From Betaproteobacteria bacterium (GTDB lineage Bacteria; Pseudomonadota; Gammaproteobacteria; Burkholderiales; Thiobacillaceae), in assembly GCA_016873935.1 (NCBI GenBank), contig VGVT01000001.1, positions 55,783-79,782 on the forward strand: a stretch of DNA of 24,000 bases, in the 5' to 3' direction. The position numbers were made by a program, and so were the translations under genes. The first letter of the stretch is position 1; each line of letters opens with the position of its first letter. A model generated the notes under the pieces. The model did not search any database. It was not told the origin of the DNA and was given only the letters and a program-made list of their open reading frames with translations. Shown one piece after another: positions 814-21,550 of this stretch.

Positions 814-910
814 AATCCGCCTTGTCCCCCTACATGAGAAATGTGGGGCATACCCACGGACGTTCGCCGGAGGGTTCCTCCCTTTCATAAAGGGAGGACA
901 GGAGGGATTC
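814..910. repeat. Family-1 palindromic element, decayed left arm plus intact beta-type right arm
   Basis: The left arm AATCCGCCTTGTCCCCCTACATGAGAAATGTGGGGCA is degenerate. The right arm GCCGGAGGGTTCCTCCCTTTCATAAAGGGAGGACAGGAGGGATTC (866-910) matches the copies at 7303-7347 and 14799-14843. Confidence 0.6.
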
Positions 911-930
911 AACCTGGCCTGGAGCTTCCC

Positions 931-1236
931 ATGTGCCTAGGCCTCCCCATGCAAATCCTGGAATGCCACGGCCTGGTCGCCCGCTGTGGGGGCCGGGGCG
1001 GCGAGCGGACCATCGATCTGGCCCTGGTGGGCGAACACCCCCCGGGAACCTGGCTGCTGTGCTTCATCGACGCGGCCCGGGAAGTCATCGACGCCGCCAC
1101 CGCCGACCGCGTCAACGCCGCCCTGGACGGCCTGGAGGCCGCCATGACCGGGGTGGTCGATCTGGACGCCCACTTCGCCGACCTGGTCGGCCGAACTCCC
1201 CAACTGCCCCCTCACCTGCGAGGACTCGCCCCATGA
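931..1236 (+). CDS. hoxL: HypC-like hydrogenase chaperone (HupF/HoxL)
   Basis: Starts MCLGLPMQILE, the invariant MC(L/I)G(I/L)P N-terminus of the HypC/HupF family. Its stop overlaps the next start (ATGA at 1233-1236). Confidence 0.85.
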   Translation: MCLGLPMQILECHGLVARCGGRGGERTIDLALVGEHPPGTWLLCFIDAAREVIDAATADRVNAALDGLEAAMTGVVDLDAHFADLVGRTPQLPPHLRGLAP

Positions 1237-1670
1237 CCCGCATCCATCCCCTCATCGCCCGCCTGGTGGACGAATTCGGCTACCCCCACCTCGCCGCCGC
1301 CGACCTGGAAGCCTTCAGCAACGCCCCCGGCGACGCCGTGCTGTTCTGCGCCGGCGACCCGGTCCAGTACCCGGAATGCCTGGACGTGGCCGTGGTGCTG
1401 CCGGAAATCCTGCGCGCCTTTCCGGGACGCTTCCGTGCCGGCATCCCCGCCGTCGAGATGGAGCCCGCCATGCAGGCCCGCTATGGCTTCAACCGCTGGC
1501 CCACCCTGGTGTTCCTTCGGGGCGGCGCCTACGTGGGCACGATCTCCGGCATCCAGGACTGGTCCGTGTACCTGGTGCGCATCCAGGAACTGCTGGCCAC
1601 CCCCGCGAGCCGGCCCCCGTCCATCGGCATCCCGGTCTCCACGCCGTCCGCCGCCGCCACCTGCCACTGA
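1233..1670 (+). CDS. hoxO: Hydrogenase expression protein, HyaE/HupG/HoxO family (thioredoxin-like)
   Basis: MTRIHPLIARLVDEFGYPHLAAADLEAF...RWPTLVFLRGGAYVG resembles HyaE/HupG. The position after hoxL matches the conserved operon order, and the start is coupled by an ATGA overlap. Confidence 0.75.
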   Translation: MTRIHPLIARLVDEFGYPHLAAADLEAFSNAPGDAVLFCAGDPVQYPECLDVAVVLPEILRAFPGRFRAGIPAVEMEPAMQARYGFNRWPTLVFLRGGAYVGTISGIQDWSVYLVRIQELLATPASRPPSIGIPVSTPSAAATCH

Positions 1671-1680
1671 GGAGCCCGCC

Positions 1681-2532
1681 ATGCATCCCTTCCCGATTCC
1701 CGTCGTCGGATTGACGCAAACCCTCGGCCCCGGCTCCCAACAGGAAGACGAGACCCTGGACTATCTGCCCATGCCCCACGCCATGCGCACCTTCCAGACC
1801 CCCATCCTGCCGGAGCCGGAGGACGTGCGGGAACACGGCGAGGCCCGCGCCTGGCTGGGCCGGCTCCTTGACCTGGCGCGCAAGTGGCGGCCCGGCATGG
1901 GCGCCTTGAGCCTGGACATGAGTGGCCTTTCCGAGGCCGACCGCAAGCTCATCGACCAGGTGCTGGGGGAGGGTGAGGTGAGCGCCCAGGTGGCCGGCGA
2001 ATCCGGCACCCTGGCCATCCAGGAAAGCGTCTTCGCCGGCGTCTGGCGCCTGCGCGGCCGGGATCTGGAGGATAACGCCTTCGCCGACCGGGTGGAGGTC
2101 GGCGACGTGCCCGCCGCCGTGGGCCTGGCGGCCCGGGCCGGCCAGGCCGCCCCCAAGCCCCGGCCCACCACGCCAGGCGTCATCAACGCCCCGGCCCTGC
2201 TGGCGGAGGTGACCGAGCGGGTGACCGGCCACGCCGCCGAGTCCCACATCCTCAACCTCTCCCTCCTGCCTTTCGGCCCGGAGGACGCCACCTGGCTGGA
2301 CCAGTGCCTGGGCCGGGGGCGGGTCACCCTGCTGTCGCGGGGCTACGGCAACTGCCGCATCACCGCCACCGGCGTGGCCCGGGTGTGGTGGGTGCAGTAC
2401 TTCAACTCCCAGGACGCCCTCATCCTCAACACCCTGGAAATCGTCGACGTGCCCGAGGTGGCCCGGGCCGCCGCCGAGGACCTGGAGGACAGCGCCGAGC
2501 GCCTGGCGGAAGTGCTGGAGTGGATCGGTTGA
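1681..2532 (+). CDS. hoxQ: Hydrogenase expression/formation protein, HyaF/HupH/HoxQ family
   Basis: ATG at 1681, 283 aa. The length and position between hoxO and the rubredoxin gene fit the family, and the C-terminal ...VWWVQYFNSQDALILNTLEIVDVPEVA is HupH-like. Confidence 0.75.
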   Translation: MHPFPIPVVGLTQTLGPGSQQEDETLDYLPMPHAMRTFQTPILPEPEDVREHGEARAWLGRLLDLARKWRPGMGALSLDMSGLSEADRKLIDQVLGEGEVSAQVAGESGTLAIQESVFAGVWRLRGRDLEDNAFADRVEVGDVPAAVGLAARAGQAAPKPRPTTPGVINAPALLAEVTERVTGHAAESHILNLSLLPFGPEDATWLDQCLGRGRVTLLSRGYGNCRITATGVARVWWVQYFNSQDALILNTLEIVDVPEVARAAAEDLEDSAERLAEVLEWIG

Positions 2533-2542
2533 ACCCTGTTTC

Positions 2543-2567
2543 ACCCTGCTTACAAAGGGGGAGACAA
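2543..2567. repeat. Possible remnant of a family-1 arm
   Basis: ACCCTGCTTACAAAGGGGGAGACAA resembles the CCCCCCTTTACAAAGGGGGGAGA arm core but has a degraded 5' stem. Confidence 0.35.
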
Positions 2568-2626
2568 AAGCCGGTGCCGGGGCTCATTATGTTGCAGTGC
2601 AAGCAAAGTTCTCTCCCGCCTCACCC

Positions 2627-2842
2627 ATGACCACCTTCGAAGGCTCCTTTCTCGGAGACGCCAGCCGCCTGCCGCCTGACGCCAAGCTCGAATGCAAGAT
2701 CTGCTGGCATGTCTACGATCCGGCGGAGGGCGACCCGGTCTGGCAGATTCCCCCCGGCACCGCCTTCGCCGACCTGCCTGCCCATTGGCGCTGCCCCAAC
2801 TGCGACGGCGCGCGGGAACAGTTCATGGTGCTGGATGACTGA
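2627..2842 (+). CDS. hoxR: Rubredoxin-type hydrogenase accessory protein (HupI/HoxR)
   Basis: Two CxxC pairs with rubredoxin spacing and context: ECKICWHVYDP...WRCPNCDG. ATG at 2627 (MTTFEGSFLGD) is preferred over the in-frame GTG at 2597. Confidence 0.85.
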   Translation: MTTFEGSFLGDASRLPPDAKLECKICWHVYDPAEGDPVWQIPPGTAFADLPAHWRCPNCDGAREQFMVLDD

Positions 2843-2856
2843 GATACAAGCCGCTT

Positions 2857-2959: not shown

Positions 2960-3451
2960 AACCCTTCGACCACCTTGGAAGCGGTCTTCCGCCGCATCGC
3001 CGCAACCCGCATGGCCGGCGTCGGCCTGCTCAACCCGGCCCTGGACGTGGAGGCGGTGGGGTTCCGTCCCTGGCATGGCGATTGGGTGGGCGTGCTCATC
3101 ACGCCCTGGTTCATGAACCTGATCTGCCTGCCCGGACCGGATGCGACCTGGGAGGCGCAATCCAGCGGCAGCAAGCGGGATGTGGAACTTCCTTCCGGCA
3201 GCTACGAATTCCTCGCCGCGGACGAGGAGGAACTGGGACCCTACCTGACCAGCTCCCTGTTCTCGCCCATGTTCGAGTTCCCGGACATGGACCAGGCCCG
3301 GGCGGTTGCAGTGGCATCCCTGGAAGAAATTTTCACGCCGGCCCCGCCGGTTCCCGCCCCGCCTCCGGTGGGCCTGACCGCCAAGCTGGAACAGCCGGTC
3401 AGCCGGCGCGGCTTCTTCGGCGCCCTGCTGCGGCCGGGAGACAAGGTTTGA
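2909..3451 (+). CDS. hoxT: Hydrogenase assembly chaperone, HybE/HupJ/HoxT family
   Basis: LEAVFRRIAATRMAGVGLLNPALDVEAVGFRPWHGDWVGVLITPWFMNL is HybE/HupJ-like. The start is uncertain: ATG 2909 reads through a repeat arm (KSPPTSLYESGEN), and an in-frame TTG at 2975 lies just downstream of the arm. Confidence 0.7.
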   Translation: MTTVAKSPPTSLYESGENPSTTLEAVFRRIAATRMAGVGLLNPALDVEAVGFRPWHGDWVGVLITPWFMNLICLPGPDATWEAQSSGSKRDVELPSGSYEFLAADEEELGPYLTSSLFSPMFEFPDMDQARAVAVASLEEIFTPAPPVPAPPPVGLTAKLEQPVSRRGFFGALLRPGDKV

Positions 3452-4900: not shown

Positions 4901-4909
4901 CGTTTTGCC

Positions 4910-4975: not shown

Positions 4976-5000
4976 GAGCCTTATTTTCAGGAGTCTGACT

Positions 5001-6137: not shown

Positions 6138-6144
6138 TGCAGGT

Positions 6145-6591: not shown

Positions 6592-6594
6592 CGA

Positions 6595-6675: not shown

Positions 6676-9231
6676 GGGTTGCAGCGCCGCCTCCGCATCA
6701 CAGGCATCGTCCAAGGCGTCGGCTTCCGCCCCTACGTCTGGCATCTCGCCAATGAACTGAACCTCGCCGGCTGGGTGCGCAATGACGCCGCCGGGGTGGA
6801 AGTGCTGGTGGAGGGCGAGCCCGAGCCAATCGAAGCCTTCACCCGCCGCCTGCCCCTGGAAATTCCGCCCCTGGCCCAAGTGCGCGACATGACCTGGCGC
6901 GATGGTCCGGCCACGGGCGAGCACACCGACTTCACCATCACGGAAAGCGGTGCAGGGCGGGCCGCCACCCTGATCGGCCCCGACACCGCCACCTGCCCGG
7001 ACTGCCTGGCGGAGCTGTTCGATCCCGCCGACCGGCGCTGGCGCTACGCCTTCATCAACTGCACCCACTGCGGCCCCCGCTACACCCTGACCCGCGGCCT
7101 GCCCTACGACCGGGCCCAGACCAGCATGGCGGCGTTTCCCCTGTGCCCGGACTGCGCGGGGGAATACCGGAACCCGGCCGACCGGCGCTTCCATGCGGAG
7201 CCGACGGCGTGTCCGGTGTGCGGGCCGGGGGTGTGGGTGGTTGACCTGAGCAAAATCCCCCCCAGCCCCCCTTTACGAAAGGGGGGAGAGCCTCGTCCCT
7301 CAGCCGAAGGGTTCCTCCCTTTTGTAAAGGGAGGACAGGAGGGATTTGGCTACGGCCAGCAGAACAAACACGACCCCATCTCCGACACCCTCCACCGCCT
7401 GCAAGCCGGCCAGATCCTCGCCATCAAGGGCCTGGGCGGCTTCCACCTGGCCTGCGACGCCCGCAACGCCGATGCAGTGCAGACCCTGCGCGAGCGCAAG
7501 AACCGGGAGGAGAAGCCCTTCGCGGTCATGGCGGCCAACCTGGCGTCCCTGGCCGAGTGGGTGGAGCTGAGCCCCGCCGAGGCGGAACTGCTGCGCTCCC
7601 CCGAGCGGCCCATCGTCCTGCTGCGCAAGAAGCCGGGGGCCGATGCGCCCTTCTCCGGCATCGCCCCGGGTCTCGCCTGGCTGGGCGTCATGCTGCCCTA
7701 CACGCCCCTGCATTGGCTGATTTTCCACGAGGCGGCGGGGCGACCGGCCGGCACGGAATGGATGGGCCAACCCCAGGAACTGATGCTGGTGATGACCAGC
7801 GCCAACCCGGGCGGCGAGCCCCTGGTGATCCGCAACGACGAGGCGGTGGAGCGCCTGGCCGGCATCGCCGATGGGGTGCTGATGCACGACCGGGACATCG
7901 TGGTGCGGTGCGATGATTCGGTGGTGCTTCTGGCTCCCTCCCCCTCGAGGGGGGAGGGCGGGGGAGGGGGTGAAACGCTTTCCGGTTCCGCCATTCCTCT
8001 CCCCCCCACCCCGGCCCTCCCCCGCGAGGGGGGAGGGAGTGTGGGTTTCATCCGCCGCGCCCGCGGCTACACCCCCCGCGCCATCCGCCTGGCCCGCGTC
8101 GGCCCGCCCGTGCTGGCCCTGGGGGGCTATCTCAAGAACACGATCTGCGTCACCCGGGGCGACGAGGCCTTCGTCTCCCAGCACATCGGCGGCCTGGACA
8201 ACCCGGCCACCTGCGCCATGCTCATGGAGGTGGCCCAACACCTCCTGGACATCCTGGAGGTGAAGCCCGAGGCCGTGGCCCACGACCTGCATCCGGATTT
8301 CTTCGCCAGCCGCCATGCCCTGGAGCTGGCGGAACAATGGGGCGTGCCCGCCATCGCCGTGCAGCACCACCACGCCCACATCGCCGCTGTGGCGGCGGAA
8401 CATGGGGTGACTGCACCCATCATGGGCCTGGCCCTGGACGGGGTGGGCCTGGGCAGCGACGGTCAGGCCTGGGGCGGAGAACTGCTGCGGATGGACGGCG
8501 CGTCCTTTACCCGCCTGGGCCATCTTTCCCCTCTTGCCTTGCCCGGCGGCGACAAGGCCGCCAAGGAGCCCTGGCGCATGGCGGCGGCTGCCCTGTTCAA
8601 ACTGGGCCGCAGCGATGAGATACCACGCCGCTTTCCCGGACAGCCCCTGGCCCGGCAACTGCACGTGATGCTGGAACACGACGTCCACTGCCCGCCCACC
8701 ACCAGCCTGGGCCGCTGGTTCGACGCGGCCGCCGGCCTGTTGGGAGCCCGGGAGGTCATGGCCTACGAGGGCCAGGCGGCCATGCTGCTGGAGGGATTGG
8801 CGGAGCGGGGTGGCGAGGTGGCGCCACTCGCGGACGGATGGCGCCTCAGCGAAGTCGTCATTCCGGCGCAGGCCGGAATCCAGAGCAACCCAGACTGGAC
8901 CCCGGCCTCCGCCGGGGTGACGATGCAATTGGACCTGCTGCCCCTGCTGGCCCGCCTGGCCGACGAAACCGACCCGGCCCGGGGCGCCGCCCTGTTCCAC
9001 GCCACCCTGGCCCTGGCCCTGGCCGAGTGGACGGAACGGGCCGCTCGGCGGGAGGGTCTCACCACCGTCGCCCTGGGCGGCGGCTGCTTCCTGAATCACA
9101 TCCTTTCCCGCAACCTGGGCCGCCTGCTGATCGAACGCGGCCTCACCGTCCTGGAGGCGCGCCAGGCGCCGCCCAACGACGGGGGCTTGAGCCTGGGCCA
9201 GGCTTGGGTTGCAATGCAGCATATTTCCTGA
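6604..9231 (+). CDS. hypF: Carbamoyltransferase HypF (acylphosphatase, two zinc fingers, YrdC-like and Kae1-like domains)
   Basis: Motifs: LRITGIVQGVGFRPYVW (acylphosphatase), CPDCLAEL...CTHCGPRYT and CPDCAGEY...CPVCGP (zinc fingers), IKGLGGFHLACDA (YrdC-like). The predicted 875 aa is about 90 aa longer than expected, which is accounted for by three repeat insertions. The start is ambiguous: ATG 6604, ATG 6631 or TTG 6679. Confidence 0.9.
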   Translation: MEQRAIRVAMESETPDSAAPHPGYGLQRRLRITGIVQGVGFRPYVWHLANELNLAGWVRNDAAGVEVLVEGEPEPIEAFTRRLPLEIPPLAQVRDMTWRDGPATGEHTDFTITESGAGRAATLIGPDTATCPDCLAELFDPADRRWRYAFINCTHCGPRYTLTRGLPYDRAQTSMAAFPLCPDCAGEYRNPADRRFHAEPTACPVCGPGVWVVDLSKIPPSPPLRKGGEPRPSAEGFLPFVKGGQEGFGYGQQNKHDPISDTLHRLQAGQILAIKGLGGFHLACDARNADAVQTLRERKNREEKPFAVMAANLASLAEWVELSPAEAELLRSPERPIVLLRKKPGADAPFSGIAPGLAWLGVMLPYTPLHWLIFHEAAGRPAGTEWMGQPQELMLVMTSANPGGEPLVIRNDEAVERLAGIADGVLMHDRDIVVRCDDSVVLLAPSPSRGEGGGGGETLSGSAIPLPPTPALPREGGGSVGFIRRARGYTPRAIRLARVGPPVLALGGYLKNTICVTRGDEAFVSQHIGGLDNPATCAMLMEVAQHLLDILEVKPEAVAHDLHPDFFASRHALELAEQWGVPAIAVQHHHAHIAAVAAEHGVTAPIMGLALDGVGLGSDGQAWGGELLRMDGASFTRLGHLSPLALPGGDKAAKEPWRMAAAALFKLGRSDEIPRRFPGQPLARQLHVMLEHDVHCPPTTSLGRWFDAAAGLLGAREVMAYEGQAAMLLEGLAERGGEVAPLADGWRLSEVVIPAQAGIQSNPDWTPASAGVTMQLDLLPLLARLADETDPARGAALFHATLALALAEWTERAARREGLTTVALGGGCFLNHILSRNLGRLLIERGLTVLEARQAPPNDGGLSLGQAWVAMQHIS
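7252..7347. repeat. Family-1 palindromic element, complete, inside the hypF coding sequence
   Basis: AAAATCCCCCCCAGCCCCCCTTTACGAAAGGGGGGAG-spacer-GCCGAAGGGTTCCTCCCTTTTGTAAAGGGAGGACAGGAGGGATTT. It is 96 bp (32 codons) and is translated as KIPPSPPLRKGGEPRPSAEGFLPFVKGGQEGF. Confidence 0.9.
7934..8039. repeat. Family-2 G/C-rich palindromic element inside the hypF coding sequence
   Basis: CTCCCTCCCCCTCGAGGGGGGAGGGCGGGGGAGGGGGTGA ... TCTCCCCCCCACCCCGGCCCTCCCCCGCGAGGGGGGAGGGAG. The arms are inverted repeats. It is translated as APSPSRGEGGGGGETLSGSAIPLPPTPALPREGGGS, between the conserved DDSVV and RRARGY. Confidence 0.7.
8857..8922. repeat. Family-3 66-bp palindromic element inside the hypF coding sequence
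   Basis: GTCATTCCGGCGCAGGCCGGAATCCAG-AGCAACCCAGA-CTGGACCCCGGCCTCCGCCGGGGTGACG. It is 66 bp (22 codons) and is translated as VIPAQAGIQSNPDWTPASAGVT. Confidence 0.9.
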
Positions 9232-9241
9232 GGGTTCCATC

Positions 9242-9481
9242 ATGTGCTTAGCCATCCCCGCCCGCGTTGTTGAAGTTGCCGAAAACGACCAGGCCATCGT
9301 CGACCTGGGCGGCGTGCGCAAGGACGTCTCCCTGGCCCTGGTCGAAGACGTGCAAGTGGGTGACTACGTCATCGTCCACGTGGGCTACGCCCTGACCCGG
9401 CTGGACCCTGAAGAGGCGGAGAAGACCCTGGCCCTGATGGCGGAAGCCGGGATGCTGTCGGATGCGGAATCTCCCGCGTGA
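9242..9481 (+). CDS. hypC: Hydrogenase assembly chaperone HypC
   Basis: Starts MCLAIPARVVE (HypC N-terminal Cys2 motif), 79 aa. ATG 9242 is preferred over ATG 9209. Confidence 0.9.
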   Translation: MCLAIPARVVEVAENDQAIVDLGGVRKDVSLALVEDVQVGDYVIVHVGYALTRLDPEEAEKTLALMAEAGMLSDAESPA

Positions 9482-9714
9482 AGTTCACTCAGTACTTCCT
9501 GGCCATGCGGCAGCGACCTGACCGCGTGGACATTCGGCTGGAGTGGATACAGCGGGTCATCGAGCAACCATTGTGCGAGGAAATCCAGGAGGATGGGCGC
9601 ATTCGCCGCTGGGCGTTGATCCCGGAAGCGGAAAACCGCGCCATGCGTGTCATCCTGTTGCCGGATCGTGAAACCGTACATAACGCTTTTTTTGACCGGA
9701 GATTTACGCCATGA
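9478..9714 (+). CDS. Putative toxin, DUF4258-like
   Basis: 78 aa. FLAMRQRPDRVDIRLEWIQRVIEQP...GRIRRWALIPEAENRAMRVILLPDRETVHNAFFDR resembles the DUF4258 pattern (H..RM..R.I....V..VI..P...GR......LRVV......ITAF.DR). The GTG start overlaps the hypC stop (GTGA). GC is lower than in the flanks. Confidence 0.55.
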   Translation: MKFTQYFLAMRQRPDRVDIRLEWIQRVIEQPLCEEIQEDGRIRRWALIPEAENRAMRVILLPDRETVHNAFFDRRFTP

Positions 9715-9908
9715 AGATCAAGTATTTCCAGGATACGGACACCCTCTACATCGAGTTCCGCTCCGCCCCGGTCAACGAAACGCGTGACCTGGACGAGAAC
9801 ACGCTCATGGATATGGACGCCCAGGGCAACATCTGCGCAATCACCCTGGAGCATGCGAAGGAGCGGGCGGACATTCCCCATTTCTCCTTCGAGCAGATCG
9901 CGGCCTGA
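9711..9908 (+). CDS. Putative antitoxin, DUF2283-like
   Basis: 65 aa. MKIKYFQDTDTLYIEFRSAPVNETRDLDENTLMDMDAQGNICAITLEHA matches the DUF2283 pattern (MKI.YD...D.LYI.......E......G...D.D..G.I.GIEIL.A). An ATGA overlap links it to the preceding ORF. Confidence 0.6.
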   Translation: MKIKYFQDTDTLYIEFRSAPVNETRDLDENTLMDMDAQGNICAITLEHAKERADIPHFSFEQIAA

Positions 9909-9912: not shown

Positions 9913-11049
9913 ATGAAATACGTCGACGAGTACCGCGACGGCGAAGTCGCGCAAAAATTGTCGGCCGCCATCGCCGCCGAGGTCCGCCCCGACCGCCGCT
10001 ACAACTTCATGGAGTTCTGCGGCGGCCACACCCACGCCATCTCCCGCTACGGCGTGCCGGACCTGCTGCCGCCCAACGTGTGCATGATCCACGGGCCGGG
10101 CTGCCCGGTGTGCGTGCTGCCCATCGGGCGGATCGACCTGGCCATCAAGCTTGCCCTGGAGCGGGGCGTCATCGTCTGCACCTACGCCGACACGGTGAGG
10201 GTGCCGGCCTCCAACGGCCTGTCCCTGATGAAGGCCAAGGCCCGGGGCGGCGACATCCGCATGGTCTACGCGGTGACCGACGCCCTGAAGATCGCCCGCG
10301 ACAATCCGGGCAAGGAAGTGGTGTTCTTCGCCATCGGCTTCGAGACCACCACGCCGCCCACGGCGGTGGCCATCAAGGCTGCCCAGGCGGAAGGCATGAA
10401 GAACTTCAGCGTGCTGTGCTGCCACGTGCTCACCCCCTCGGCCATCATGAACATCCTGGAATCGCCGGAAGTGCGCGAGCTGGGCACGGTGCCCCTGGAC
10501 GGCTTCATCGGCCCGGCCCACGTCTCCACGGTCATCGGCAGCCGGCCCTACGAGTTCTTCGCGGAGGAATACCGCAAGCCCGTGGTCATCGCCGGCTTCG
10601 AGCCCCTGGACGTGATGCAGGCCATCCTCATGCTGGTGCGCCAGGTCAACGAAGGCCGCGCCACGGTGGAGAACGAGTTCACCCGGGCCGTCACCCCGGA
10701 TGGCAATGAGAAGGCCCAGAACCTGGTGTCCGACGTGTTCGAGCTGCGCCGCAGTTTCGAATGGCGCGGCCTTGGGGAGGTGCCTTATTCCGCCCTGCGC
10801 ATCCGGGAGAAATACGCCGAGTTCGACGCCGAGCGGCGCTACGGCCTGGAATACCGCCCGGTCCCGGACAACAAGGCCTGCGAGTGCGGCGCCATCCTGC
10901 GCGGGGTGAAGAAACCTACGGACTGCAAGATCTTCGGCACGGTATGTACGCCGGAGACGCCCATGGGGTCGTGCATGGTGTCGTCGGAGGGGGCCTGCGC
11001 GGCCCATTACACCTATGGACGGCACAAGGATATGGAGGCGGCTGAATGA
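9913..11049 (+). CDS. hypD: Hydrogenase maturation Fe-S protein HypD
   Basis: Starts MKYVDEYRD. Motifs: FMEFCGGHTH, GPGCPVCV, FAIGFETTTP, and the C-terminal Cys cluster CxxxxC...C. Confidence 0.95.
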   Translation: MKYVDEYRDGEVAQKLSAAIAAEVRPDRRYNFMEFCGGHTHAISRYGVPDLLPPNVCMIHGPGCPVCVLPIGRIDLAIKLALERGVIVCTYADTVRVPASNGLSLMKAKARGGDIRMVYAVTDALKIARDNPGKEVVFFAIGFETTTPPTAVAIKAAQAEGMKNFSVLCCHVLTPSAIMNILESPEVRELGTVPLDGFIGPAHVSTVIGSRPYEFFAEEYRKPVVIAGFEPLDVMQAILMLVRQVNEGRATVENEFTRAVTPDGNEKAQNLVSDVFELRRSFEWRGLGEVPYSALRIREKYAEFDAERRYGLEYRPVPDNKACECGAILRGVKKPTDCKIFGTVCTPETPMGSCMVSSEGACAAHYTYGRHKDMEAAE

Positions 11050-11075
11050 GCTCATTCCGTATCAATTCGTCGCTG

Positions 11076-11188
11076 AAATCCCCCCCAGCCCCCCTGTATG
11101 AAAGGGGGGAGAACCAATGCGCCAAGCCGACGGGTTCCTCCCTTTCTCAAAGCCCCCATACGGGGATAAAGGAGGACAGGAGGGATTT
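11076..11188. repeat. Family-1 palindromic element, 113-bp variant with a nested loop insertion
   Basis: AAATCCCCCCCAGCCCCCCTGTATGAAAGGGGGGAG ... GCCGACGGGTTCCTCCCTTTCTCAAAGCCCCCATACGGGGATAAAGGAGGACAGGAGGGATTT. The right-arm loop carries the extra segment AGCCCCCATACGGGGAT. Confidence 0.9.
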
Positions 11189-11227: not shown

Positions 11228-12280
11228 ATGAGCGGCCAAGTAAAGAAGGGCTACGCCCGCCCCCTCGACATCAAGCACGGCCGCGTGGACATGAGCCACG
11301 GCGGCGGCGGCCGGGCCATGGTGCAACTGATCACCGACCTGTTCGCCAAGCACCTCTCCAACGAATACCTGGCCCAGGGCAACGACGGCACCTGCCTGCC
11401 GGTGGGGGAGGGCAGGCTGGTGGTGTCCACCGACAGCCACGTGGTCTCGCCCATCTTCTTCCCGGGCGGCGACATCGGTTGCCTGTCGGTGCACGGCACC
11501 GTCAACGACGTGGCGGTGATGGGGGCGACGCCCCTCTACCTCACCGCCGGCTTCATCCTGGAGGAGGGCTTCCCCCTGGCCGACCTGGCCCGCATCGTCG
11601 AATCCATGGCCAAGGCCGCGAATGAAGCCGGCGTGAAGCTGGTGGCCGGCGACACCAAGGTGGTGGAACAGGGCAAGGGCGACGGCGTGTTCATCACCAC
11701 CACCGGCGTCGGCTTCCTGCCCGAGGGCATCCACCTCTCCGGCGACCTGGCCCGGCCCGGCGACGTGCTGCTGGTCTCGGGCAGCGTCGGCGACCACGGC
11801 GTGGCCATCATGTCCAAGCGGGAGAACCTCTCCTTCGATGCTCCCATCCTCTCGGACACGGCGGCCCTCAACGGCCTCACCGCCGCCATGCTGGCCTCGG
11901 GTGCCGCCATCCGCGTCATGCGCGATCCCACCCGGGGCGGACTGGCCGCCACCATCAACGAGATCGCCCACCAGTCCGGTGTGGGTGTCCATCTGGAGGA
12001 AGCCGCGATCCCGGTGAAGCCGGAAGTGGACGCCGCCTGCGAGCTGCTGGGCCTGGATCCCCTCAACATCGCCAACGAGGGCAAGCTCATCGCCGTCTGC
12101 GCCGCCGAGGACGCGGACAAACTCCTCGCCGCCATGCGCGCCCATCCCCAGGGACGGGAAGCCGCCCTCATCGGCAAGGTGGTGGAAGACCCCAACGCCT
12201 TCGTGCAGATGAAGACGAAGTTCGGCGGCCGGCGGATGGTGGACTGGCTGTCGGGCGAGCAGTTGCCGAGGATTTGCTGA
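11228..12280 (+). CDS. hypE: Hydrogenase maturation carbamoyl dehydratase HypE
   Basis: KHGRVDMSHGGGG at the N-terminus, an AIR-synthase-like body, and the invariant C-terminal PRIC*. An AAGGA Shine-Dalgarno-like motif lies upstream of ATG 11228. The ATG 11117 in the ORF track merely reads through the repeat. Confidence 0.95.
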   Translation: MSGQVKKGYARPLDIKHGRVDMSHGGGGRAMVQLITDLFAKHLSNEYLAQGNDGTCLPVGEGRLVVSTDSHVVSPIFFPGGDIGCLSVHGTVNDVAVMGATPLYLTAGFILEEGFPLADLARIVESMAKAANEAGVKLVAGDTKVVEQGKGDGVFITTTGVGFLPEGIHLSGDLARPGDVLLVSGSVGDHGVAIMSKRENLSFDAPILSDTAALNGLTAAMLASGAAIRVMRDPTRGGLAATINEIAHQSGVGVHLEEAAIPVKPEVDAACELLGLDPLNIANEGKLIAVCAAEDADKLLAAMRAHPQGREAALIGKVVEDPNAFVQMKTKFGGRRMVDWLSGEQLPRIC

Positions 12281-12307
12281 GGATTGTTGCGTGGTTGGAA
12301 AGACTCT

Positions 12308-12405
12308 AATCCCCCCTAGCCCCCCTTTAACAAAGGGGGGGAGAAACCGTGATGCCTCGATAGCGGCCTCTCCCCCCTTTCCTAAAGGGGGGGCGGGGGG
12401 GATTC
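12308..12405. repeat. Family-1 palindromic element, complete (alpha type)
   Basis: AATCCCCCCTAGCCCCCCTTTAACAAAGGGGGGGAG ... CTCTCCCCCCTTTCCTAAAGGGGGGGCGGGGGGGATTC. Confidence 0.9.
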
Positions 12406-12410
12406 AAGCG

Positions 12411-12941
12411 TTGACACAACCCGCCGCTCTCAACGAATACGACCACCGCTTGAAACCCCTGGCCCGCAACCTGCGCAGCCACTTGACCGATGCCGAGCAA
12501 AAACTTTGGCACCACCTGCGCCGGGACCAACTCGGTGTCCGTTTCTACCGCCAGCGCCCATTTGGTCAATACATCCTGGATTTCTATGCGCCCAAGGCGA
12601 GGCTGGTCGTTGAACTGGATGGCAGCCAGCACCAGGATGACCCGATCGTTAGAACTAAGGACGAATTGCGGGACGCTTGGTTGAGTGCCCAGGGACTGAA
12701 GGTCTTGCGTTTTGATGATCGGCAGGTGCTGACGGAGACCTGGTCGGTTATGGAGGTGATTTTCGAGGAAGTGGGTGCCGCATGCGCCGGCGAAATCCCC
12801 CCCCACCCCCCTTTACAAAGGGGGGAGACCCCAGATACCCCAGCCGAAGGGTCCCTCCCTTTTGCAAAGCCCCCATACGGGGATAAAGGGGGACAGGAGG
12901 GATTTGACGACGTCAGGCAATCAGATCCCACTCAGGACTAG
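12411..12941 (+). CDS. DUF559 (Vsr/restriction-endonuclease-like fold) domain protein; both the start and the true C-terminus are uncertain
   Basis: ARNLRSHLTDAEQKLWHHLRRDQLGVRFYRQRPFGQYILDFYAPKARLVVELDGSQH is the DUF559 core. There is no in-frame ATG between the upstream repeat and the domain; candidate starts are TTG 12411, TTG 12450, or GTG 12291 (which reads through the repeat). The 3' end reads through the element at 12793-12905. Confidence 0.65.
   Translation: MTQPAALNEYDHRLKPLARNLRSHLTDAEQKLWHHLRRDQLGVRFYRQRPFGQYILDFYAPKARLVVELDGSQHQDDPIVRTKDELRDAWLSAQGLKVLRFDDRQVLTETWSVMEVIFEEVGAACAGEIPPHPPLQRGETPDTPAEGSLPFAKPPYGDKGGQEGFDDVRQSDPTQD
12793..12905. repeat. Family-1 palindromic element, 113-bp variant with a nested loop insertion
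   Basis: AAATCCCCCCCCACCCCCCTTTACAAAGGGGGGAG ... GCCGAAGGGTCCCTCCCTTTTGCAAAGCCCCCATACGGGGATAAAGGGGGACAGGAGGGATTT. It has the same architecture and length as the copy at 11076-11188. Confidence 0.9.
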
Positions 12942-12947: not shown

Positions 12948-14735
12948 ATGCGCATCCTCTTCCTCACCCACGCCTTCAACAGCCTGACCCAGCGGCTCTA
13001 TGTGGAACTCACCGCCCTCGGCCATGAGATATCCATCGAGTTCGACATCAACGACAGCGTCACCACCGAGGCGGTGGAGCTGTTCCGGCCCCACCTGATC
13101 CTGGCGCCCTACCTGCGCCGGGCCATTCCGGAAGCCATCTGGCGCGAGCACGTCTGCCTGATCGTGCACCCGGGCATCGTCGGCGACCGGGGGCCGTCGG
13201 CCCTGGACTGGGCGATCCTGAACGGCGAGAAGGAATGGGGCGTGACCGTGCTCCAGGCGGAAGCCGAGATGGACGCCGGCCCGGTGTGGGCCAGCGAGAC
13301 CTTCCCCATGCGGGCGGCGAAGAAATCCAGCCTGTACCGCAACGAGGTCACCGAAGCGGCGGTGCGGGCGGTGCAGGCAGCCCTCTCCCGGCTGCCTGAC
13401 TACCGTGCCGGAACCTGGCAGCCGCAATCCGTCCCGTTGCGCCCCATGCACGCCATCATGCAACAGGGCAACCGGGCCATCGATTGGGAAAGGGACGCCA
13501 CCGCCACGGTGCTCGCCAAGCTCGACTGCGCCGACGGCTTTCCCGGGGTGCGCGACAGCCTCTTCGGCCGGACCTGCCAGCTCTACGATGGCCGGGCGTT
13601 TCCGGCCCGGGGCCGGCCTGGCGAGCTGCTGGGCCGGGCGGGGGAGGGCGTGGTGCGGGCCACCGCCGACGGGGCGGTGTGGATCGGGCACTGCAAGGTG
13701 GAGGGTGGGATCAAGCTGCCGGTGGGGGGGGTGTTTCCGGAGGTGGCGGGGTTGGAGGAGATGTTGCCAACGACGAATCCCCCCCAGCCCCCCTTTTACA
13801 AAGGGGGGAGTGACAGCAACGGGATTTTGGGTGTTCCCCCCTTTGAAAAAGGGGGGACAGGGGGGATTCCTATGGATCCCGACATCACCTACGAAGAATC
13901 CGCTTCAGTCGGCTACCTCCACTTCGACTTCTACAACGGCGCCATGGGCACCGCCGCCTGCGAGCGGCTGCTGTCCGCCTATGAAGCCGCTCGGCAGCGC
14001 CCCACCAAGGTCATCGTGCTCCTGGGCGGCGCCGATTTCTTCAGCAACGGCCTGGATCTGAACCGCATCGAGGCGGCCGACAGCCCGCCGGACGAATCCT
14101 GGCGCAACATCAACGCCATGGACGACCTCTGTCGGGCCATCATCACCACCGATTCCCACCTCACCGTCAGCGCCCTGCGCGGCAACGCCGGCGCCGGCGG
14201 CGCCTTCCTGGCCCTGGCGGCGGACCGGGTGTGGGCGCGCCGGGGCGTCATCCTCAACCCCCACTACAAGAACATGGGCAACCTGTACGGCTCGGAATAC
14301 TGGAGCTACCTGCTGCCGCGCCGGGTGGGCGTTGATCAGGCCCAGGCCATCCTACGCAACCGCCTGCCCCTGGGCGCGGAATCCGCGACCACCATGGGCT
14401 TCCTGGACGAAGCCTTCGGTGAAGACCTGGCCGGCTTCGAGGCGGAAACCCGCCGCCGAGCCCAGGCCCTGGCCGAAGCCGCCGATTTCGCCGAACAACT
14501 ACGGGAGAAGAACCGCCGCCGCGCCGAGGACGAGGCCGCGAAGCCCCTGGAGAATTGCCGCGCCGAGGAACTGAAGCACATGCAGCGCAACTTCTACGGC
14601 TTCGACCCCAGCTACCACGTGGCCCGCCACCATTTCGTGGGCAAGACGCCCCATTCCTGGACGCCGAGGCATCTGGCGGTGCACCGGGATTTGGGGTGGG
14701 TGGTGCCGGGTGATTCCGGAGAGGTTTCCGGGTGA
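12948..14735 (+). CDS. hypX: Hydrogenase maturation factor HypX/HoxX (N-terminal formyltransferase-like domain, C-terminal enoyl-CoA hydratase/crotonase-like domain)
   Basis: MRILFLTHAFNSLTQRLYVEL...LIVHPGIVGDRGPSALDWAI (formyltransferase-like), then VIVLLGGADFFSNGLDLN...GNAGAGGAFLALAAD (crotonase-like). It follows hypE, as in aerobic H2 oxidisers. Confidence 0.85.
   Translation: MRILFLTHAFNSLTQRLYVELTALGHEISIEFDINDSVTTEAVELFRPHLILAPYLRRAIPEAIWREHVCLIVHPGIVGDRGPSALDWAILNGEKEWGVTVLQAEAEMDAGPVWASETFPMRAAKKSSLYRNEVTEAAVRAVQAALSRLPDYRAGTWQPQSVPLRPMHAIMQQGNRAIDWERDATATVLAKLDCADGFPGVRDSLFGRTCQLYDGRAFPARGRPGELLGRAGEGVVRATADGAVWIGHCKVEGGIKLPVGGVFPEVAGLEEMLPTTNPPQPPFYKGGSDSNGILGVPPFEKGGTGGIPMDPDITYEESASVGYLHFDFYNGAMGTAACERLLSAYEAARQRPTKVIVLLGGADFFSNGLDLNRIEAADSPPDESWRNINAMDDLCRAIITTDSHLTVSALRGNAGAGGAFLALAADRVWARRGVILNPHYKNMGNLYGSEYWSYLLPRRVGVDQAQAILRNRLPLGAESATTMGFLDEAFGEDLAGFEAETRRRAQALAEAADFAEQLREKNRRRAEDEAAKPLENCRAEELKHMQRNFYGFDPSYHVARHHFVGKTPHSWTPRHLAVHRDLGWVVPGDSGEVSG
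13776..13869. repeat. Family-1 palindromic element inside the hypX interdomain linker
   Basis: AATCCCCCCCAGCCCCCCTTTTACAAAGGGGGGAG ... GTTCCCCCCTTTGAAAAAGGGGGGACAGGGGGGATTC. It is translated as NPPQPPFYKGGSDSNGILGVPPFEKGGTGGI. Confidence 0.9.
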
Positions 14736-14748
14736 TTCCGGCGTTGCT

Positions 14749-14843
14749 AAATCCCCCCCGGCCCCCCTTTAGGAAAGGGGGGAGAGCCTTTGACGTAGGC
14801 CGAAGGGTTCCTCCCTTTTGTAAAGGGAGGACAGGAGGGATTT
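14749..14843. repeat. Family-1 palindromic element (beta right arm), hypX-hoxA junction
   Basis: AAATCCCCCCCGGCCCCCCTTTAGGAAAGGGGGGAG ... GCCGAAGGGTTCCTCCCTTTTGTAAAGGGAGGACAGGAGGGATTT. Confidence 0.9.
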
Positions 14844-16332: not shown

Positions 16333-16354
16333 GGTGATGGTGGTCGCCGCGGAG

Positions 16355-16453
16355 AAATCCCCCCCAGCCCCCCTTTACGAAAGGGGGGAGCAGAACCGCA
16401 TCGGCTTGAAATGGGCGTTCCCCCCTTTCGTAAAGGGGGGACAGGGGGGATTT
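16355..16453. repeat. Family-1 palindromic element (alpha), hoxA-hoxB junction
   Basis: AAATCCCCCCCAGCCCCCCTTTACGAAAGGGGGGAG ... GTTCCCCCCTTTCGTAAAGGGGGGACAGGGGGGATTT. This is the cleanest copy, and its arms are near-perfect reverse complements. Confidence 0.9.
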
Positions 16454-16484
16454 AGCAACCCTGGCCATTCCCTCAAGGCCCACC

Positions 16485-17495: not shown

Positions 17496-17534
17496 AGCTT
17501 GTCGATCAACGGTTTCGCGTGTTCTGCGCGCGTC

Positions 17535-17661
17535 AAATCCCCCCCGGCCCCCCTTTAGGAAAGGGGGGAGCAAACCACCTTGCCCGCACACTGTTCGCAG
17601 GGAAAGATGCCGCCCACCCCGTGAGTCCCCCCCTTTTTCAAAGGGGGGTTAGGGGGGATTT
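17535..17661. repeat. Family-1 palindromic element (alpha, long 56-nt spacer), hoxB-hoxC junction
   Basis: AAATCCCCCCCGGCCCCCCTTTAGGAAAGGGGGGAG ... GTCCCCCCCTTTTTCAAAGGGGGGTTAGGGGGGATTT. Confidence 0.85.
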
Positions 17662-17694
17662 CTCCGCGGCGTGTATAACCAACAGGTCTCACCC

Positions 17695-19113: not shown

Positions 19114-19127
19114 TGAGCCGGCCGGTG

Positions 19128-19228
19128 AAAATCCCCCCCAGCCCCCCTTTACAAAAGGGGGGAGAAAAGCAGCGATGCGCCTTGCACGGGCGTCCCCGCC
19201 TTTTGCAAAGGGGGGGCAGGGGGGATTT
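19128..19228. repeat. Family-1 palindromic element (alpha), hoxC-hoxJ junction
   Basis: AAAATCCCCCCCAGCCCCCCTTTACAAAAGGGGGGAG ... GTCCCCGCCTTTTGCAAAGGGGGGGCAGGGGGGATTT. Confidence 0.9.
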
Positions 19229-19262
19229 CGCCAACTTCAACATTCCCAGCAGCACCTGACAC

Positions 19263-20603
19263 ATGCCCACCACCAAGCACCTCCCCCCGCCCATCCTCGC
19301 CGAAGGCCTGCAAAGCCTGGGCGAGGACGCCTGGATCGAGGTCATCCAGAAGATGGACGAGGTGTACAACGACCTGCTCCAGTACGAGGTGGCCCTGGAG
19401 GAGAAGAACGCGGCCCTGGAGGAATCCCAGCAGTTCGTGTTCTCGGTGCTGGCCTCCATGTCCGACATCCTGGTGGTGTGCGACCGGGACGGGAAGATCG
19501 AGGTGGTGAACCAGGCCCTGGTGGCTTTCTCAGGCAAGCCGGAGAGCGCACTGATCGGCATGCCCCTGTTCGACCTGTTCGCCGACGACGGCGCCCGCGC
19601 CAACGCCGAGCGCATGTTCGCCAACCACGGCATGAAGGGCCTGGCCGATTGCGAACTGCCCCTGAAGGGCGCCGACGGTGCCGCCGTGCCGGTCTCCCTC
19701 AACTGCACGCCGCGCTTCAACCACCAGGGTACCCAGGTGGGCATGGTCATCACCGGCCGGCCGGTGGGTGAACTGCGTCGTGCCTACCAGGCCCTGCGCG
19801 AGGCCCACGAGGACCTGAAGCGGACCCAGCAGCAGTTACTGCATTCGGAGAAGATGGCCTCGCTCGGGCGCCTGGTGGCGGGCGTCGCCCACGAACTCAA
19901 CAACCCCATCAGCTTCGTCCTGGGCAACGCCCATGCCCTGCACCGCTATGCCCAGCGCCTGGAGCAATACCTGGCCGCCTTCCACGCCGGCCGGCCGCAA
20001 GAGGAGCTGGAAGTCCTGCGCCGGGAGCTGCGCATCGACCGATTGCTGGAGGACCTGCCGCCCCTGATCGAGGGCACGGTCGAAGGGGCGGAACGCACCC
20101 GCGACATCGTCGACAGCCTCAAGCGCTTTTCGGCGGTGGACCGCAACGAGACCCAGCCCTTCAACCTGTCCCAGGTCATCGAGCAGGCGGTGCACTGGGT
20201 CACCAAGGCCGCCGCCGACAAGCTCAAGGTCACGACCGAGCTGCCGGAAGGCATCAACGTGCTGGGCTCGGCGGGCCAGATGCAGCAGGTCGTCATGAAC
20301 CTGGTGCAGAACGCCTGCGATGCCACCGCCGAGGAGACCCAGCCGCGCCTGGACATTTCCGCCCGGCGGGTCGGCGACAGCGTCGAGATCAGCTTCCGGG
20401 ACAACGGTCCCGGCATTCCGGCGGACAACCTGCCCCACCTGTTCGAACCCTTCTTCACCACCAAGCCGGTCGGCAAGGGGACCGGCCTGGGCCTGGCCAT
20501 CACCTACGGCATCGTCGAGCGCCACGGCGGCAGTCTGAGCGCGGGCAACGCGCCGGAAGGCGGCGCGGTGTTCAACTTGAGGCTGCCCCTGGCGAAGCAC
20601 TGA
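19263..20603 (+). CDS. hoxJ: Soluble PAS-domain histidine kinase of the H2-sensing pathway (HoxJ/HupT)
   Basis: No transmembrane segments are evident. A PAS-like region (FSVLASMSDILVVCDRDGKI), a HisKA H-box (LGRLVAGVAHELNNPISF), and HATPase N/G boxes (NLVQNACDA, DNGPGI, GKGTGLGL) are present. Confidence 0.85.
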   Translation: MPTTKHLPPPILAEGLQSLGEDAWIEVIQKMDEVYNDLLQYEVALEEKNAALEESQQFVFSVLASMSDILVVCDRDGKIEVVNQALVAFSGKPESALIGMPLFDLFADDGARANAERMFANHGMKGLADCELPLKGADGAAVPVSLNCTPRFNHQGTQVGMVITGRPVGELRRAYQALREAHEDLKRTQQQLLHSEKMASLGRLVAGVAHELNNPISFVLGNAHALHRYAQRLEQYLAAFHAGRPQEELEVLRRELRIDRLLEDLPPLIEGTVEGAERTRDIVDSLKRFSAVDRNETQPFNLSQVIEQAVHWVTKAAADKLKVTTELPEGINVLGSAGQMQQVVMNLVQNACDATAEETQPRLDISARRVGDSVEISFRDNGPGIPADNLPHLFEPFFTTKPVGKGTGLGLAITYGIVERHGGSLSAGNAPEGGAVFNLRLPLAKH

Positions 20604-20626
20604 CCCCCGGGGCAGGGAGCGGGCTC

Positions 20627-21550
20627 TTATTGCCAGTCGTGCACGTGGCTGTGGCGGTGCTCGACGCCGCCGTGGCGGTGGCTGTGGGTGTGGACCAGGT
20701 TCGCGGCGGCGAGGAGTTCCATGTTCCCCAGCAGGCCGTGGATGTCGCCGTCATGGATCAGGCGGTGGTCCTCGCCCAGCACCAGGGCGCGGCTACCCAG
20801 TTCCGGCGCCAGACTCAGGTTGTGGGTGGTGATCAGGGTGGTCACACCCAGGCCGGAGAGGAAATCCACCAGCCAGCCGGTGGAGCGGGGATCCAGGGCG
20901 GCGGTGGGTTCGTCCAACAGCAGCACCTTGGGCTCCAGGGCGAGGAGGGCGGCCAGGCAGACCTTCTGTTTCTCGCCGCCGGACAGGGAGAAGGGCGGGC
21001 GCTCCAGATGGGCGGTCACGCCCACCTGCGCGGCCCAGTGCCGCACCCGCTGGTCCAGGTCGGTCAGGCCCATCTGGCGGGGGCCGAAGGCGATCTCGTC
21101 GTACACCGTGGGGTTGAACAGCATGGCGTCGGGGTTCTGGAAGAGCAGGGCGACTTCGCGGCGGAAGCGGTGGTGCAGGGCCGGATGCTTGAGCCGGGCC
21201 GGGGTGATGGACTCGCCGTCGTAGGTGAATTGGCCGGCCGTGGGCGCGATGAGGCCGTCGAGGATCTTCAGCAGGGTGGATTTGCCGCTGCCGTTGCAGC
21301 CCAGCAGCACCACTTTTTCGCCGGGATGGATGGAAAAGCCGATGTCCGCCAGGACTTCCTTGGCGCCGTAGCGGTGGGTGATGCCGGCAGCCTGGATGAC
21401 AGGTGCTCCCCCCTTTCTTAAAGGGGGGGAGGGGGGATTTTGCTCGGCTGGCGTGGCTGATGGCGTCGAAATCCCCCCCCGCCCCCCTTTAAGAAAGGGG
21501 GGGGTAGGTATGAGGCTGTTTTTTACCGCCCGGTAGCGCCGCTCAGTCAT
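20627..21550 (-). CDS. cbiO: ECF/Cbi-type Ni/Co transporter ATPase with a repeat-derived N-terminal extension and a His-rich C-terminal tail
   Basis: Walker A GCNGSGKSTLL, signature LSGGEKQKV, Walker B LLLDEPTA. The C-terminus is HTHSHRHGGVEHRHSHVHDWQ*. ATG 21550 overlaps the cbiQ stop (ATGACTGA). No alternative start codon lies between the repeat and the ATPase core. Confidence 0.85.
   Translation of the reverse strand: MTERRYRAVKNSLIPTPPFLKGGRGGISTPSATPAEQNPPSPPLRKGGAPVIQAAGITHRYGAKEVLADIGFSIHPGEKVVLLGCNGSGKSTLLKILDGLIAPTAGQFTYDGESITPARLKHPALHHRFRREVALLFQNPDAMLFNPTVYDEIAFGPRQMGLTDLDQRVRHWAAQVGVTAHLERPPFSLSGGEKQKVCLAALLALEPKVLLLDEPTAALDPRSTGWLVDFLSGLGVTTLITTHNLSLAPELGSRALVLGEDHRLIHDGDIHGLLGNMELLAAANLVHTHSHRHGGVEHRHSHVHDWQ
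21406..21504. repeat. Family-1 arms in tail-to-tail arrangement inside the cbiO 5' coding region
   Basis: The right arm CTCCCCCCTTTCTTAAAGGGGGGGAGGGGGGATTTT (21406-21441) is followed by a 27-bp gap and the left arm AAATCCCCCCCCGCCCCCCTTTAAGAAAGGGGGGGG (21469-21504). The span is 99 bp (33 codons), read on the - strand as PPFLKGGRGGISTPSATPAEQNPPSPPLRKGG. Confidence 0.85.

Follow-up and report, generated by a model that had tools for sequence, protein, structure and literature searches.

Palindromic repeats of the BoxC/PIT/TM class in a Thiobacillaceae hydrogenase gene cluster and their linkage to genes of the DUF559 nuclease family

The BoxC/PIT/TM repeats have been known in Escherichia coli since the 1990s and later turned out to be plentiful in hundreds of genomes. 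Where they come from and what they do is unexplained, and no enzyme that goes with them has been found, a gap similar to the one stated for repetitive extragenic palindromic (REP) sequences tagged with CGTC. What had been described in E. coli as BoxC repeats was found again under the name of potential intrastrand triplex (PIT) elements and, after that, of TM/TMECO motifs (Hoyne & Maher 2000, 2002; Holder et al. 2015, PMC4666352). In vitro, TMECO adopts a stable class II purine-motif triplex, PIT/TMECO elements have neither promoter nor terminator activity and are tied to local genomic instability, and 3610 TMECO copies were counted in 262 proteobacterial genomes, with no transposase or integrase nearby according to the authors (PMC4666352). 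Here, we describe a repeat family of this class (family 1) in a 24,000-nucleotide (nt) stretch of a Thiobacillaceae genome (contig VGVT01000001.1, positions 55,783 to 79,782; hereafter, the window), which has a GC content of 68% and encodes a [NiFe]-hydrogenase hup/hyp/hox cluster. The arms of this family are linked to genes coding for DUF559 proteins, nucleases that may be the long-missing partner enzyme of triplex-hairpin repeats.

Each arm of family 1 consists of a 9-bp hairpin, CCCCCCTTT-loop-AAAGGGGGG, followed by a linker of 2 to 3 nt and a tail, GGGGGGATTT (AAATCCCCCC on the other strand), which mirrors the stem strand next to it. The position of the T in the C-run of the tail mirrors that of the T in the stem run about the linker in five variant classes (CCTCCC/CCCTCC in 11 arms, CCCTCC/CCTCCC in 3, CCCCTC/CTCCCC in 7 to 8, CTCCCC/CCCCTC in 2, and TCCCCC/CCCCCT in 50), with no case fitting a direct repeat only; the scoring included the mirror variant of the copy at 814 to 910. 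Watson-Crick pairing gives no reason for such covariation. When the tail GGGGGGATTT of the G-rich strand is aligned antiparallel to AAAGGGGGG, nine allowed purine-motif triads result (G·G-C, A·A-T, and T·A-T), the conserved ATT end included. Triplex motifs are defined as a pyrimidine stem, a purine stem, and a third block that follows the triplex code, with loops of 1 to 6 nt and stems of at least 6 to 8 nt. Read in these terms, CCCCCCTTT-loop(3-6)-AAAGGGGGG-linker(2-3)-GGGGGGATTT contains all three blocks, and the third is of the mirror (Hoogsteen) type. A single strand of family 1 can thus be predicted, from its sequence, to fold as a hairpin plus a third strand, i.e., a triplex. The first-pass annotation of the window did not see this mirror-repeat architecture. 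As it has already been described for BoxC/PIT/TM, family 1 represents a known class with a new sequence.

The likeness to BoxC/PIT/TMECO extends to the order of the parts (pyrimidine stem, loop, purine stem, short linker, and purine third block, often in palindromic pairs), to the G/C-rich composition with conserved stems and variable loops, and to copy numbers in the dozens in the genomes of many bacteria, with local rearrangement and no transposase nearby. The sequence, however, is different, C6T3/A3G6 plus G6AT3 rather than the CCCTCNCCC consensus, and family 1 does not match the TMECO consensus CCCTCNCCC-N3-6-GGGNGAGGG-N3-GGGNGAGGG. New here are the insertions in frame within genes, a tail-to-tail unit of fixed spacing (~31 nt) and, above all, the linkage to DUF559, including ycjD of E. 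coli.

To locate family 1 beyond the window, we performed an exact scan of one genome per species, in which the exact 35-nt left arm was found at at least 119 loci from many phyla. Carriers include Thiobacillus, Gallionellaceae, Geobacter, Desulfobacterales, Competibacter, Lysobacter, Methylobacter, Nitrosomonas, Stutzerimonas, Glaesserella, Nitrospirota, Nitrospinota, Bacillota, Chloroflexota (Dehalococcoidia), and Patescibacteria, cultured isolates among them, and the arm was also present in 30 viral contigs. The first-pass annotation had read the repeats of the window as a proliferating element, and this reading holds, since the motif is not confined to the hydrogenase cluster and the order of its parts is conserved, beyond mere G/C homopolymer runs. 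Four arrangements were found, namely, arms alone, a 43-nt single hairpin with both tails (in Nitrospirota), head-to-head pairs, and tail-to-tail pairs. Head-to-head spacers range from 9 to 72 nt, while 22 of 24 tail-to-tail pairs, from different taxa, had one of 30 to 34 nt. All-versus-all clustering of open reading frames (ORFs) among the matches listed returned no recurring transposase or integrase, only common families (sigma-54 activators, formate dehydrogenase, and ABC proteins) and DUF559. Family 1 behaves as a dispersed, proliferated, and non-autonomous palindromic element that has probably spread horizontally.

DUF559 genes and the arms are statistically linked, and among the matches listed no other gene is consistently so. 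In the window, a DUF559 ORF (PD-(D/E)XK, Vsr-like) was identified by a Pfam match (PF04480, E value of 7e-32 and 110 bits against a cut-off of 20.6) at 12291 to 12941 of the plus strand, with the domain core at about 12450 to 12771. It sits between hypE and hypX and between two complete head-to-head elements, both of which are read through by the called ORF. The one at 12308 to 12405 is directly upstream, its right arm ending 5 nt before an in-frame TTG (12411), while the one at 12793 to 12905 occupies the gene's 3' end, its left arm coming where the domain ends. The statement in the first-pass annotation that the window holds no RAYT (REP-associated tyrosine transposase), IS200-like, or other transposase is correct, as no such domain was found in the window ORFs, but it overlooked this nuclease. 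We then took the 60 closest homologues from a collection of 5.8 billion proteins, and in 57 of them the called ORFs run into arm peptides (PP[LF]xKGG) at one or both ends. Among the 119 matches listed, the gene appeared at four loci, three with a right arm immediately before it and a left arm at its stop codon and the fourth (L081, Stutzerimonas stutzeri K1) with downstream arms only. At this last locus (7350 to 7720), a left arm plus a spacer of ~50 nt is repeated three times in tandem after DUF559, and a right arm comes next.

Independently, metagenomes were scanned with an alignment of DUF559, which provided 80 loci with a GC content of 33 to 66%. In 47 of 76 loci, a strict right arm ended 5 to 30 nt ahead of the start codon, and in 49 of 75, a strict left arm, inverted, began at the stop. 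At least one strict arm stood beside the gene in 60 of the 71 loci with both flanks available, and most of the remainder had variant arms. Away from DUF559 the density of arms was 0.097 per kb, and the gene-adjacent positions were ~90-fold above this background. When the upstream and downstream flanks were compared, the inverted-repeat score was at least 40 in 38/66 loci versus 1/41 controls. Peculiarities of a locus, for instance the 21-nt insert in the linker at L123, are found in both of its arms, and ORF clustering of the motif loci listed showed no other gene family recurring beside the arms. We also asked whether the hairpins represent a duplication of the target site and rejected this, as the loop sequences on the two sides of DUF559 match as reverse complements and not as direct copies. 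A literature search on DUF559, COG2852/YcjD/PF04480, and intrastrand triplex repeats retrieved no link between DUF559 and repeats, although its coverage was incomplete and an earlier description is possible.

The same linkage is found in enterobacteria with another family of the class. The ycjD gene of E. coli K-12 is a DUF559 gene, and a TMECO tail segment codes for the end of its product (...SPSP*). Of 120 enterobacterial YcjD homologues, about 100 terminate in PSP(R/Q)PSP, which corresponds to the TMECO tail-linker-stem CCCTCNCCC-CGG-CCCTCTCCC, the loop holding the stop codon. In Enterobacter, the ycjD homologue is followed by a complete left arm, a spacer, and a right arm. Within 200 nt downstream, K-12 ycjD is followed by a duplicate of its own 3' end, by arm remnants, and by an intact TMECO. 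At this locus (L246, 5041 to 5420), the second copy of the 3' end is truncated and precedes the TMECO motif, and in some E. coli alleles (P0244, P0252, and P0258) ycjD is fused to the remnant and reads into the motif. Published TMECO counts are 13 to 30 in strains that we take to belong to phylogroups A, B1, and C and 1 to 13 in strains presumably of B2, D, E, and F. The ycjD gene is found in phylogroups A, B1, and C and the eef efflux locus in the others (PMC12817139). We detected the ycjD region in 3375 of 5426 complete E. coli genomes, and O157:H7 carries eef in its place. The difference in TMECO counts fits a partnership between repeat and nuclease.

The position of the right arm, ending 5 to 30 nt before the start codon, could point to a regulatory or passive linkage, in which arms made otherwise give expression signals (a G-run acting as ribosome-binding site upstream and a stabilizing hairpin at the 3' end) or arms simply accumulate beside other arms, DUF559 being an ordinary Vsr-like mismatch-repair nuclease. 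The sole functional report that we found on a DUF559 protein describes how VsrA of Caulobacter provokes a DNA-damage response in vivo, a point in favor of the nuclease partnership set out below, and proposes a role in T:G mismatch repair (PMC12907096). This proposed role is in line with the regulatory or passive explanation, as are the TMECO studies, which found neither mobility genes nor a consistent flanking function. We nevertheless regard this explanation as improbable. The inverted upstream and downstream architecture holds over the whole range of GC content and many phyla, the two arms share locus-specific insertions, two unrelated arm families have the stop codon within the loop of the arm, no second gene family recurs beside the arms, and PIT/TMECO elements act neither as promoters nor as terminators.

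We favor a reading in which family 1 is a horizontally spread element of the BoxC/PIT/TM class and DUF559 is its arm-specific nuclease, in a role like that of RAYT, and put its probability at roughly 0.5. It starts from what was observed (the repeat, its architecture and covariation, its distribution, its insertion polymorphisms, the statistical linkage to DUF559, and the purifying selection on this gene) and takes one step from linkage to mechanism, whereby DUF559 would propagate or maintain the arms. The element tolerates insertion between operon genes and, in frame, in linker regions of proteins. The cassette, one of which is present in the window between hypE and hypX, is made of DUF559 between a right arm 5 to 30 nt before its start and an inverted left arm at its stop. 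The nuclease might act on arms that have folded in single-stranded DNA, nicking or cutting them, and this cutting would drive the copying, maintenance, or rearrangement of arms in trans, much as RAYT does for REPINs but with different parts, i.e., triplex-capable hairpin arms and a PD-(D/E)XK nuclease. The tail-to-tail units of ~100 nt would then be gene-less derivatives of the cassette.

Several points weigh against this reading. As an arm-binding or arm-cleaving enzyme, DUF559 is a candidate named from its position and predicted fold, and we know of no PD-(D/E)XK nuclease that catalyzes strand transfer alone. Only about 3% of the arm loci among the matches listed have the gene, and none of the 30 arm-bearing viral loci does. 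The closest homologues (70 to 75% amino acid [aa] identity) are all found at the hypE-hypX position, indicating that the cassette is vertically stable and not visibly mobile on that timescale. No target-site duplication was evident at nine copies, nor was there a clean empty site; the sole empty site, in hypX of a relative (L024), has diverged flanks. In E. coli, the correlation between TMECO and ycjD is confounded by phylogeny, and O157:H7 keeps 10 to 11 TMECO without ycjD. Lastly, the mirror covariation comes from few independent variant classes, and the TMECO triplex was not detected in vivo (PMC4666352).

A wider form of the proposal, which we hold more tentatively and at somewhat less than even odds, is that small DUF559 proteins, YcjD included, are dedicated nucleases of BoxC/PIT/TM repeats that recognize a single-stranded DNA hairpin plus third strand and drive copying, inversion, and maintenance, independently of RAYT, in many phyla and with in-frame decoration of proteins. 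If this were true, it would provide a function for a very large family of domains of unknown function and a second, RAYT-independent partnership between repeat and nuclease. Short repeats would have a new way to persist and spread, through a PD-(D/E)XK nuclease and a triplex-forming recognition structure, and it would become clear where some in-frame peptide insertions and local rearrangements of bacterial genes come from. The reproducible linkage gives these repeats a concrete, testable candidate partner, for which K-12 ycjD is the most tractable.

The DUF559 gene itself is under purifying selection, as its core has a dN/dS of 0.10 to 0.22 at a dS of 0.7 to 1.6, where synonymous sites are near saturation. 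Residues of catalytic type (D52, E63, D65, Q68, and H69) are invariant in 25 sequences, and the gene is predicted to be functional. Over the same distances, orthologous arms have unchanged stems and tails and diverged loops and spacers; given the near-saturated synonymous sites, the arms are constrained far beyond neutrality. The structural model of the protein (predicted local distance difference test [pLDDT] score of 90) has a restriction-endonuclease-like fold, with 3HRL, 3R3P, and 1CW0 as best structure matches. It superposes most closely on 3HRL, a DUF559 protein of Neisseria gonorrhoeae (TM-score of 0.71 to 0.88), followed by the catalytic domain of the EDxHD homing endonuclease I-Bth0305I (0.64 to 0.76), while Vsr is a weaker match. 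The window gene differs in that it lies in no intron and has no methyltransferase linked to it.

Such a fold raises the alternative that DUF559 is a homing-type parasite of preexisting arms, which spread for other reasons (host use or side-products of replication and repair). The gene would insert in a tail-to-tail pair, make no new arms, and end up flanked by the halves of its own site. The gene is flanked by inverted arm halves and, at 55 to 68% identity, its homologues occur in many contexts; moreover, it always lies between tail ends, where gene-less pairs have their ~31-nt spacer, there is roughly one gene per many arms, and the K-12 arrangement, with ycjD followed by a duplicated 3' end and arm remnants, looks as if a second copy had inserted. 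Yet in the Thiobacillus-like lineage, the cassette is syntenic and has been under purifying selection over a dS of ~1, unlike the cycle of invasion, decay, and loss that is typical of homing genes. The gene-less pairs keep a fixed spacer of 30 to 34 nt rather than an uninterrupted site, and homing does not account for arms reaching unrelated sites, reading frames, and phyla. We think it unlikely that DUF559 is only a guest of the arms and retain it as their candidate partner at the odds given above.

As for the other described systems, the first-pass annotation had likened the repeats to non-autonomous elements of the REPIN or MITE (miniature inverted-repeat transposable element) type. Dispersed and non-autonomous they are, but they do not belong to REP/REPIN. 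Both systems have short, mostly intergenic hairpin repeats with inverted doublets that fold into one long hairpin, and in both a single-copy, vertically stable, and selected nuclease gene is flanked by inverted repeats. From this analogy and from the abundance of the intergenic copies, one could suppose a REP/REPIN family mobilized by a RAYT (an IS200/IS605-like tyrosine transposase) encoded elsewhere in the genome, a possibility that we find extremely unlikely. The arms start with AAAT/AAT and lack the GTAG tag, with CGTC appearing only irregularly in the outer flank, and they have a mirror-repeat tail. The gene that they flank encodes a PD-(D/E)XK DUF559 protein, not an HUH tyrosine transposase; the window has no RAYT, and no transposase family recurs among the 119 matches listed. 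REPIN-RAYT systems are vertically inherited and lineage specific, whereas the exact 35-nt arm is common to several phyla. By tag, enzyme, and distribution, family 1 is not a REP/RAYT family. With MITEs it shares the small size, the lack of autonomy, the inverted ends, and the existence of gene-carrying and gene-less versions with the same ends. It differs from them in that neither a target-site duplication nor a DDE or other transposase was seen and in that its ends are hairpin-plus-tail modules also found singly.

Within the window, the hairpin core CCCCCCTTT-N3-8-AAAGGGGGG occurs 14 times versus 0.00 expected from 100 dinucleotide shuffles, in agreement with the recurrent motif of the first-pass annotation. 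We read all 13 loci described there and recovered its nine complete head-to-head copies and two tail-to-tail pairs. The 13 loci together sum to 1260 nt (5.25% of the window, previously put at ~1.3 kb and 5%). The arms were also retrieved as inverted repeats by an inverted-repeat finder, at 76 to 91% complementarity, and full units folded as single-stranded DNA gave -26 to -41 kcal/mol, far better than shuffled sequences (z of -3.9 to -7.6). Two loci had been called decayed. In the first, a head-to-head copy at 814 to 910 between hupD and hupF, only the left arm is decayed and the right arm (CCTCCC type) is intact, while the second (2543 to 2567), directly after hupH, is a weak hairpin remnant of doubtful family membership. 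The tail-to-tail pair at 2857 to 2959, between the rubredoxin gene and hybE, is made of a right arm (2857 to 2893), a spacer into which the called start of hybE (2909) falls, and a decayed left arm (2924 to 2959). The other one, at 21406 to 21504 with a 30-nt spacer, separates a 184-aa ORF (21543 to 22097, minus strand) without family match from a cbiO-like ABC-transporter ATPase gene, also on the minus strand.

Besides the pair of copies around DUF559 and the two within genes described below, head-to-head copies are located between hypD and hypE (11076 to 11188, with a nested hairpin insert in the loop of the right arm), hypX and hoxA (14749 to 14843, with an orthologous copy in L024), hoxA and hoxB (16355 to 16453), hoxB and hoxC (17535 to 17661), and hoxC and hoxJ (19128 to 19228). 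Nearly every intergenic gap from hypD to hoxJ thus has one copy, and copies are kept at orthologous gaps in four relatives (L024, L117, L203, and L205), with unchanged stems in spite of saturated synonymous sites. This regularity would suit operon elements selected by the host and specific to the hydrogenase cluster, such as hairpins that process or stabilize mRNA or sites of a local regulator. The same arm, however, is found in at least 119 unrelated contexts and phyla, copies lie inside coding sequences or are missing or inverted in close relatives, and the hairpins are not followed by a T-run, so we consider this explanation very unlikely, although a secondary effect of the elements on mRNA is possible.

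The spacers had been described as essentially unrelated, which is not so for all of them. The copies at 814, 7252, 11076, 12793, and 14749 have a common right half, GCCGAAGGGTTCCTCCCTTT..AAAGGGAGGACAGGAGGGATTT, and the right arms at 11137 to 11188 and 12854 to 12905 have the same small nested hairpin in the loop (...AAAGCCCCCATACGGGGAT...), indicating that copies descend from one another. Outside AAAT/ATTT, 8 to 10 nt recur in a few versions (GCGTTGCT, CGCGGAG, and CGTCGY), e.g., at 11066 to 11075, 14740 to 14748, 16346 to 16354, 16454 to 16463, and 17662 to 17671. These versions reappear reverse-complemented on the opposite side and also in other genomes, so that the true ends of the element are probably further out.

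Two copies lie in frame within genes, which the first-pass annotation overlooked together with two further repeat families, both in hypF. Aligned to a solved HypF, the HypF of the window has three extra segments (aa 211 to 257, 441 to 478, and 735 to 796). The first is the head-to-head copy of family 1 at 7252 to 7347 (plus strand; 96 nt, 32 codons; aa 216 to 248), placed between the zinc fingers and the YrdC-like domain. The second is a tail-to-tail pair of a BoxC/TM-like family (family 2) at 7934 to 8039 (plus strand; aa ~444 to 478), between the YrdC-like and Kae1-like domains. Its sequence is CTCCCTCCCCC-TCGA-GGGGGGAGGG-C-GGGGGAGGGGGTGA followed by the inverted partner, and its tail mirrors the stem if the linker is taken as CGG. 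Family 2 is near the TMECO consensus, but its A is placed asymmetrically; it is of the same class, not the same family. The third segment, at ~8855 to 8925, is a head-to-head dimer of CGTC-tagged REPs (CGTC-ATTCCGGC-GCAG-GCCGGAAT-CCA and its inverse) encoding VIPAQAGIQ...TPASAGVT, which is also present in a homologue (P0137); these are true CGTC REPs, separate from family 1. Among HypF homologues, the first site holds family 1 in close relatives and family 2 in another and is empty in all the more distant ones, while the second holds family 2 or a single in-frame arm of family 1. Several close HypF homologues (P0121 to P0123) were called as truncated ORFs that stop at the insertion site, and frameshifts or homopolymer assembly errors may be the cause.

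The hypX copy (13776 to 13869, plus strand, head-to-head) falls in the linker that joins the formyltransferase-like domain to the enoyl-CoA hydratase domain. It is absent from the 92%-identical orthologue in L024, where the difference amounts to 102 nt (34 codons). The hoxA-hoxB element has the same spacer in L024 and is inverted in situ (3225 to 3321) with collinear flanks, and in L117 it has identical stems and tails with different loops and spacer. In five of six frames the arms contain no stop codon, which accounts for the tolerance of in-frame insertions. In this respect, the sites in hypF (three) and hypX resemble the Rickettsia palindromic elements and the intragenic GTAG/CGTC REPs (PMC3733652), which also sit in frame in genes without destroying them. 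The Rickettsia elements are, however, an unrelated sequence family, and the hosts here are free-living Proteobacteria and others.

The hydrogenase cluster runs hupD, hupF, hupH, rubredoxin gene, hybE, hupK-like gene, hypA, hypB, hypF, hypC, DUF2283, hypD, hypE, DUF559, hypX, hoxA, hoxB, hoxC, and hoxJ, with cobalt/nickel (Cbi-type) transporter genes on the opposite strand to hyp/hox. The hupD gene spans 45 to 800, hypD ends at 11049, and, in the public gene call, hypE starts at 11228. The nearest genomes are those of Thiobacillus and metagenome-assembled Thiobacillaceae (86 to 92% identity). Window DNA was also found in three Joint Genome Institute (JGI) metagenomes, in three contigs that are 99.98 to 100% identical and, being of the same organism, uninformative about polymorphism in the population. 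A plasmid search with the hox region gave distant hydrogenase matches only, and a permissive Rfam scan of the window gave only chance microRNA-like matches on the hairpins. Between hypC and hypD (9478 to 9908), the hyp operon is interrupted by a 78-aa ORF of unknown nature and DUF2283, and between hypD and hypE two relatives (L204/L205, 2195 to 2819) have a nucleotidyltransferase/HepT toxin-antitoxin pair. The starts called mechanically or publicly for hupF, hybE, hypE, and cbiO (841, 2909, 11117, and 21550) lie within elements or read through them; in genomes of this kind, stop-free, homopolymer-rich elements routinely extend or split the annotated ORFs.

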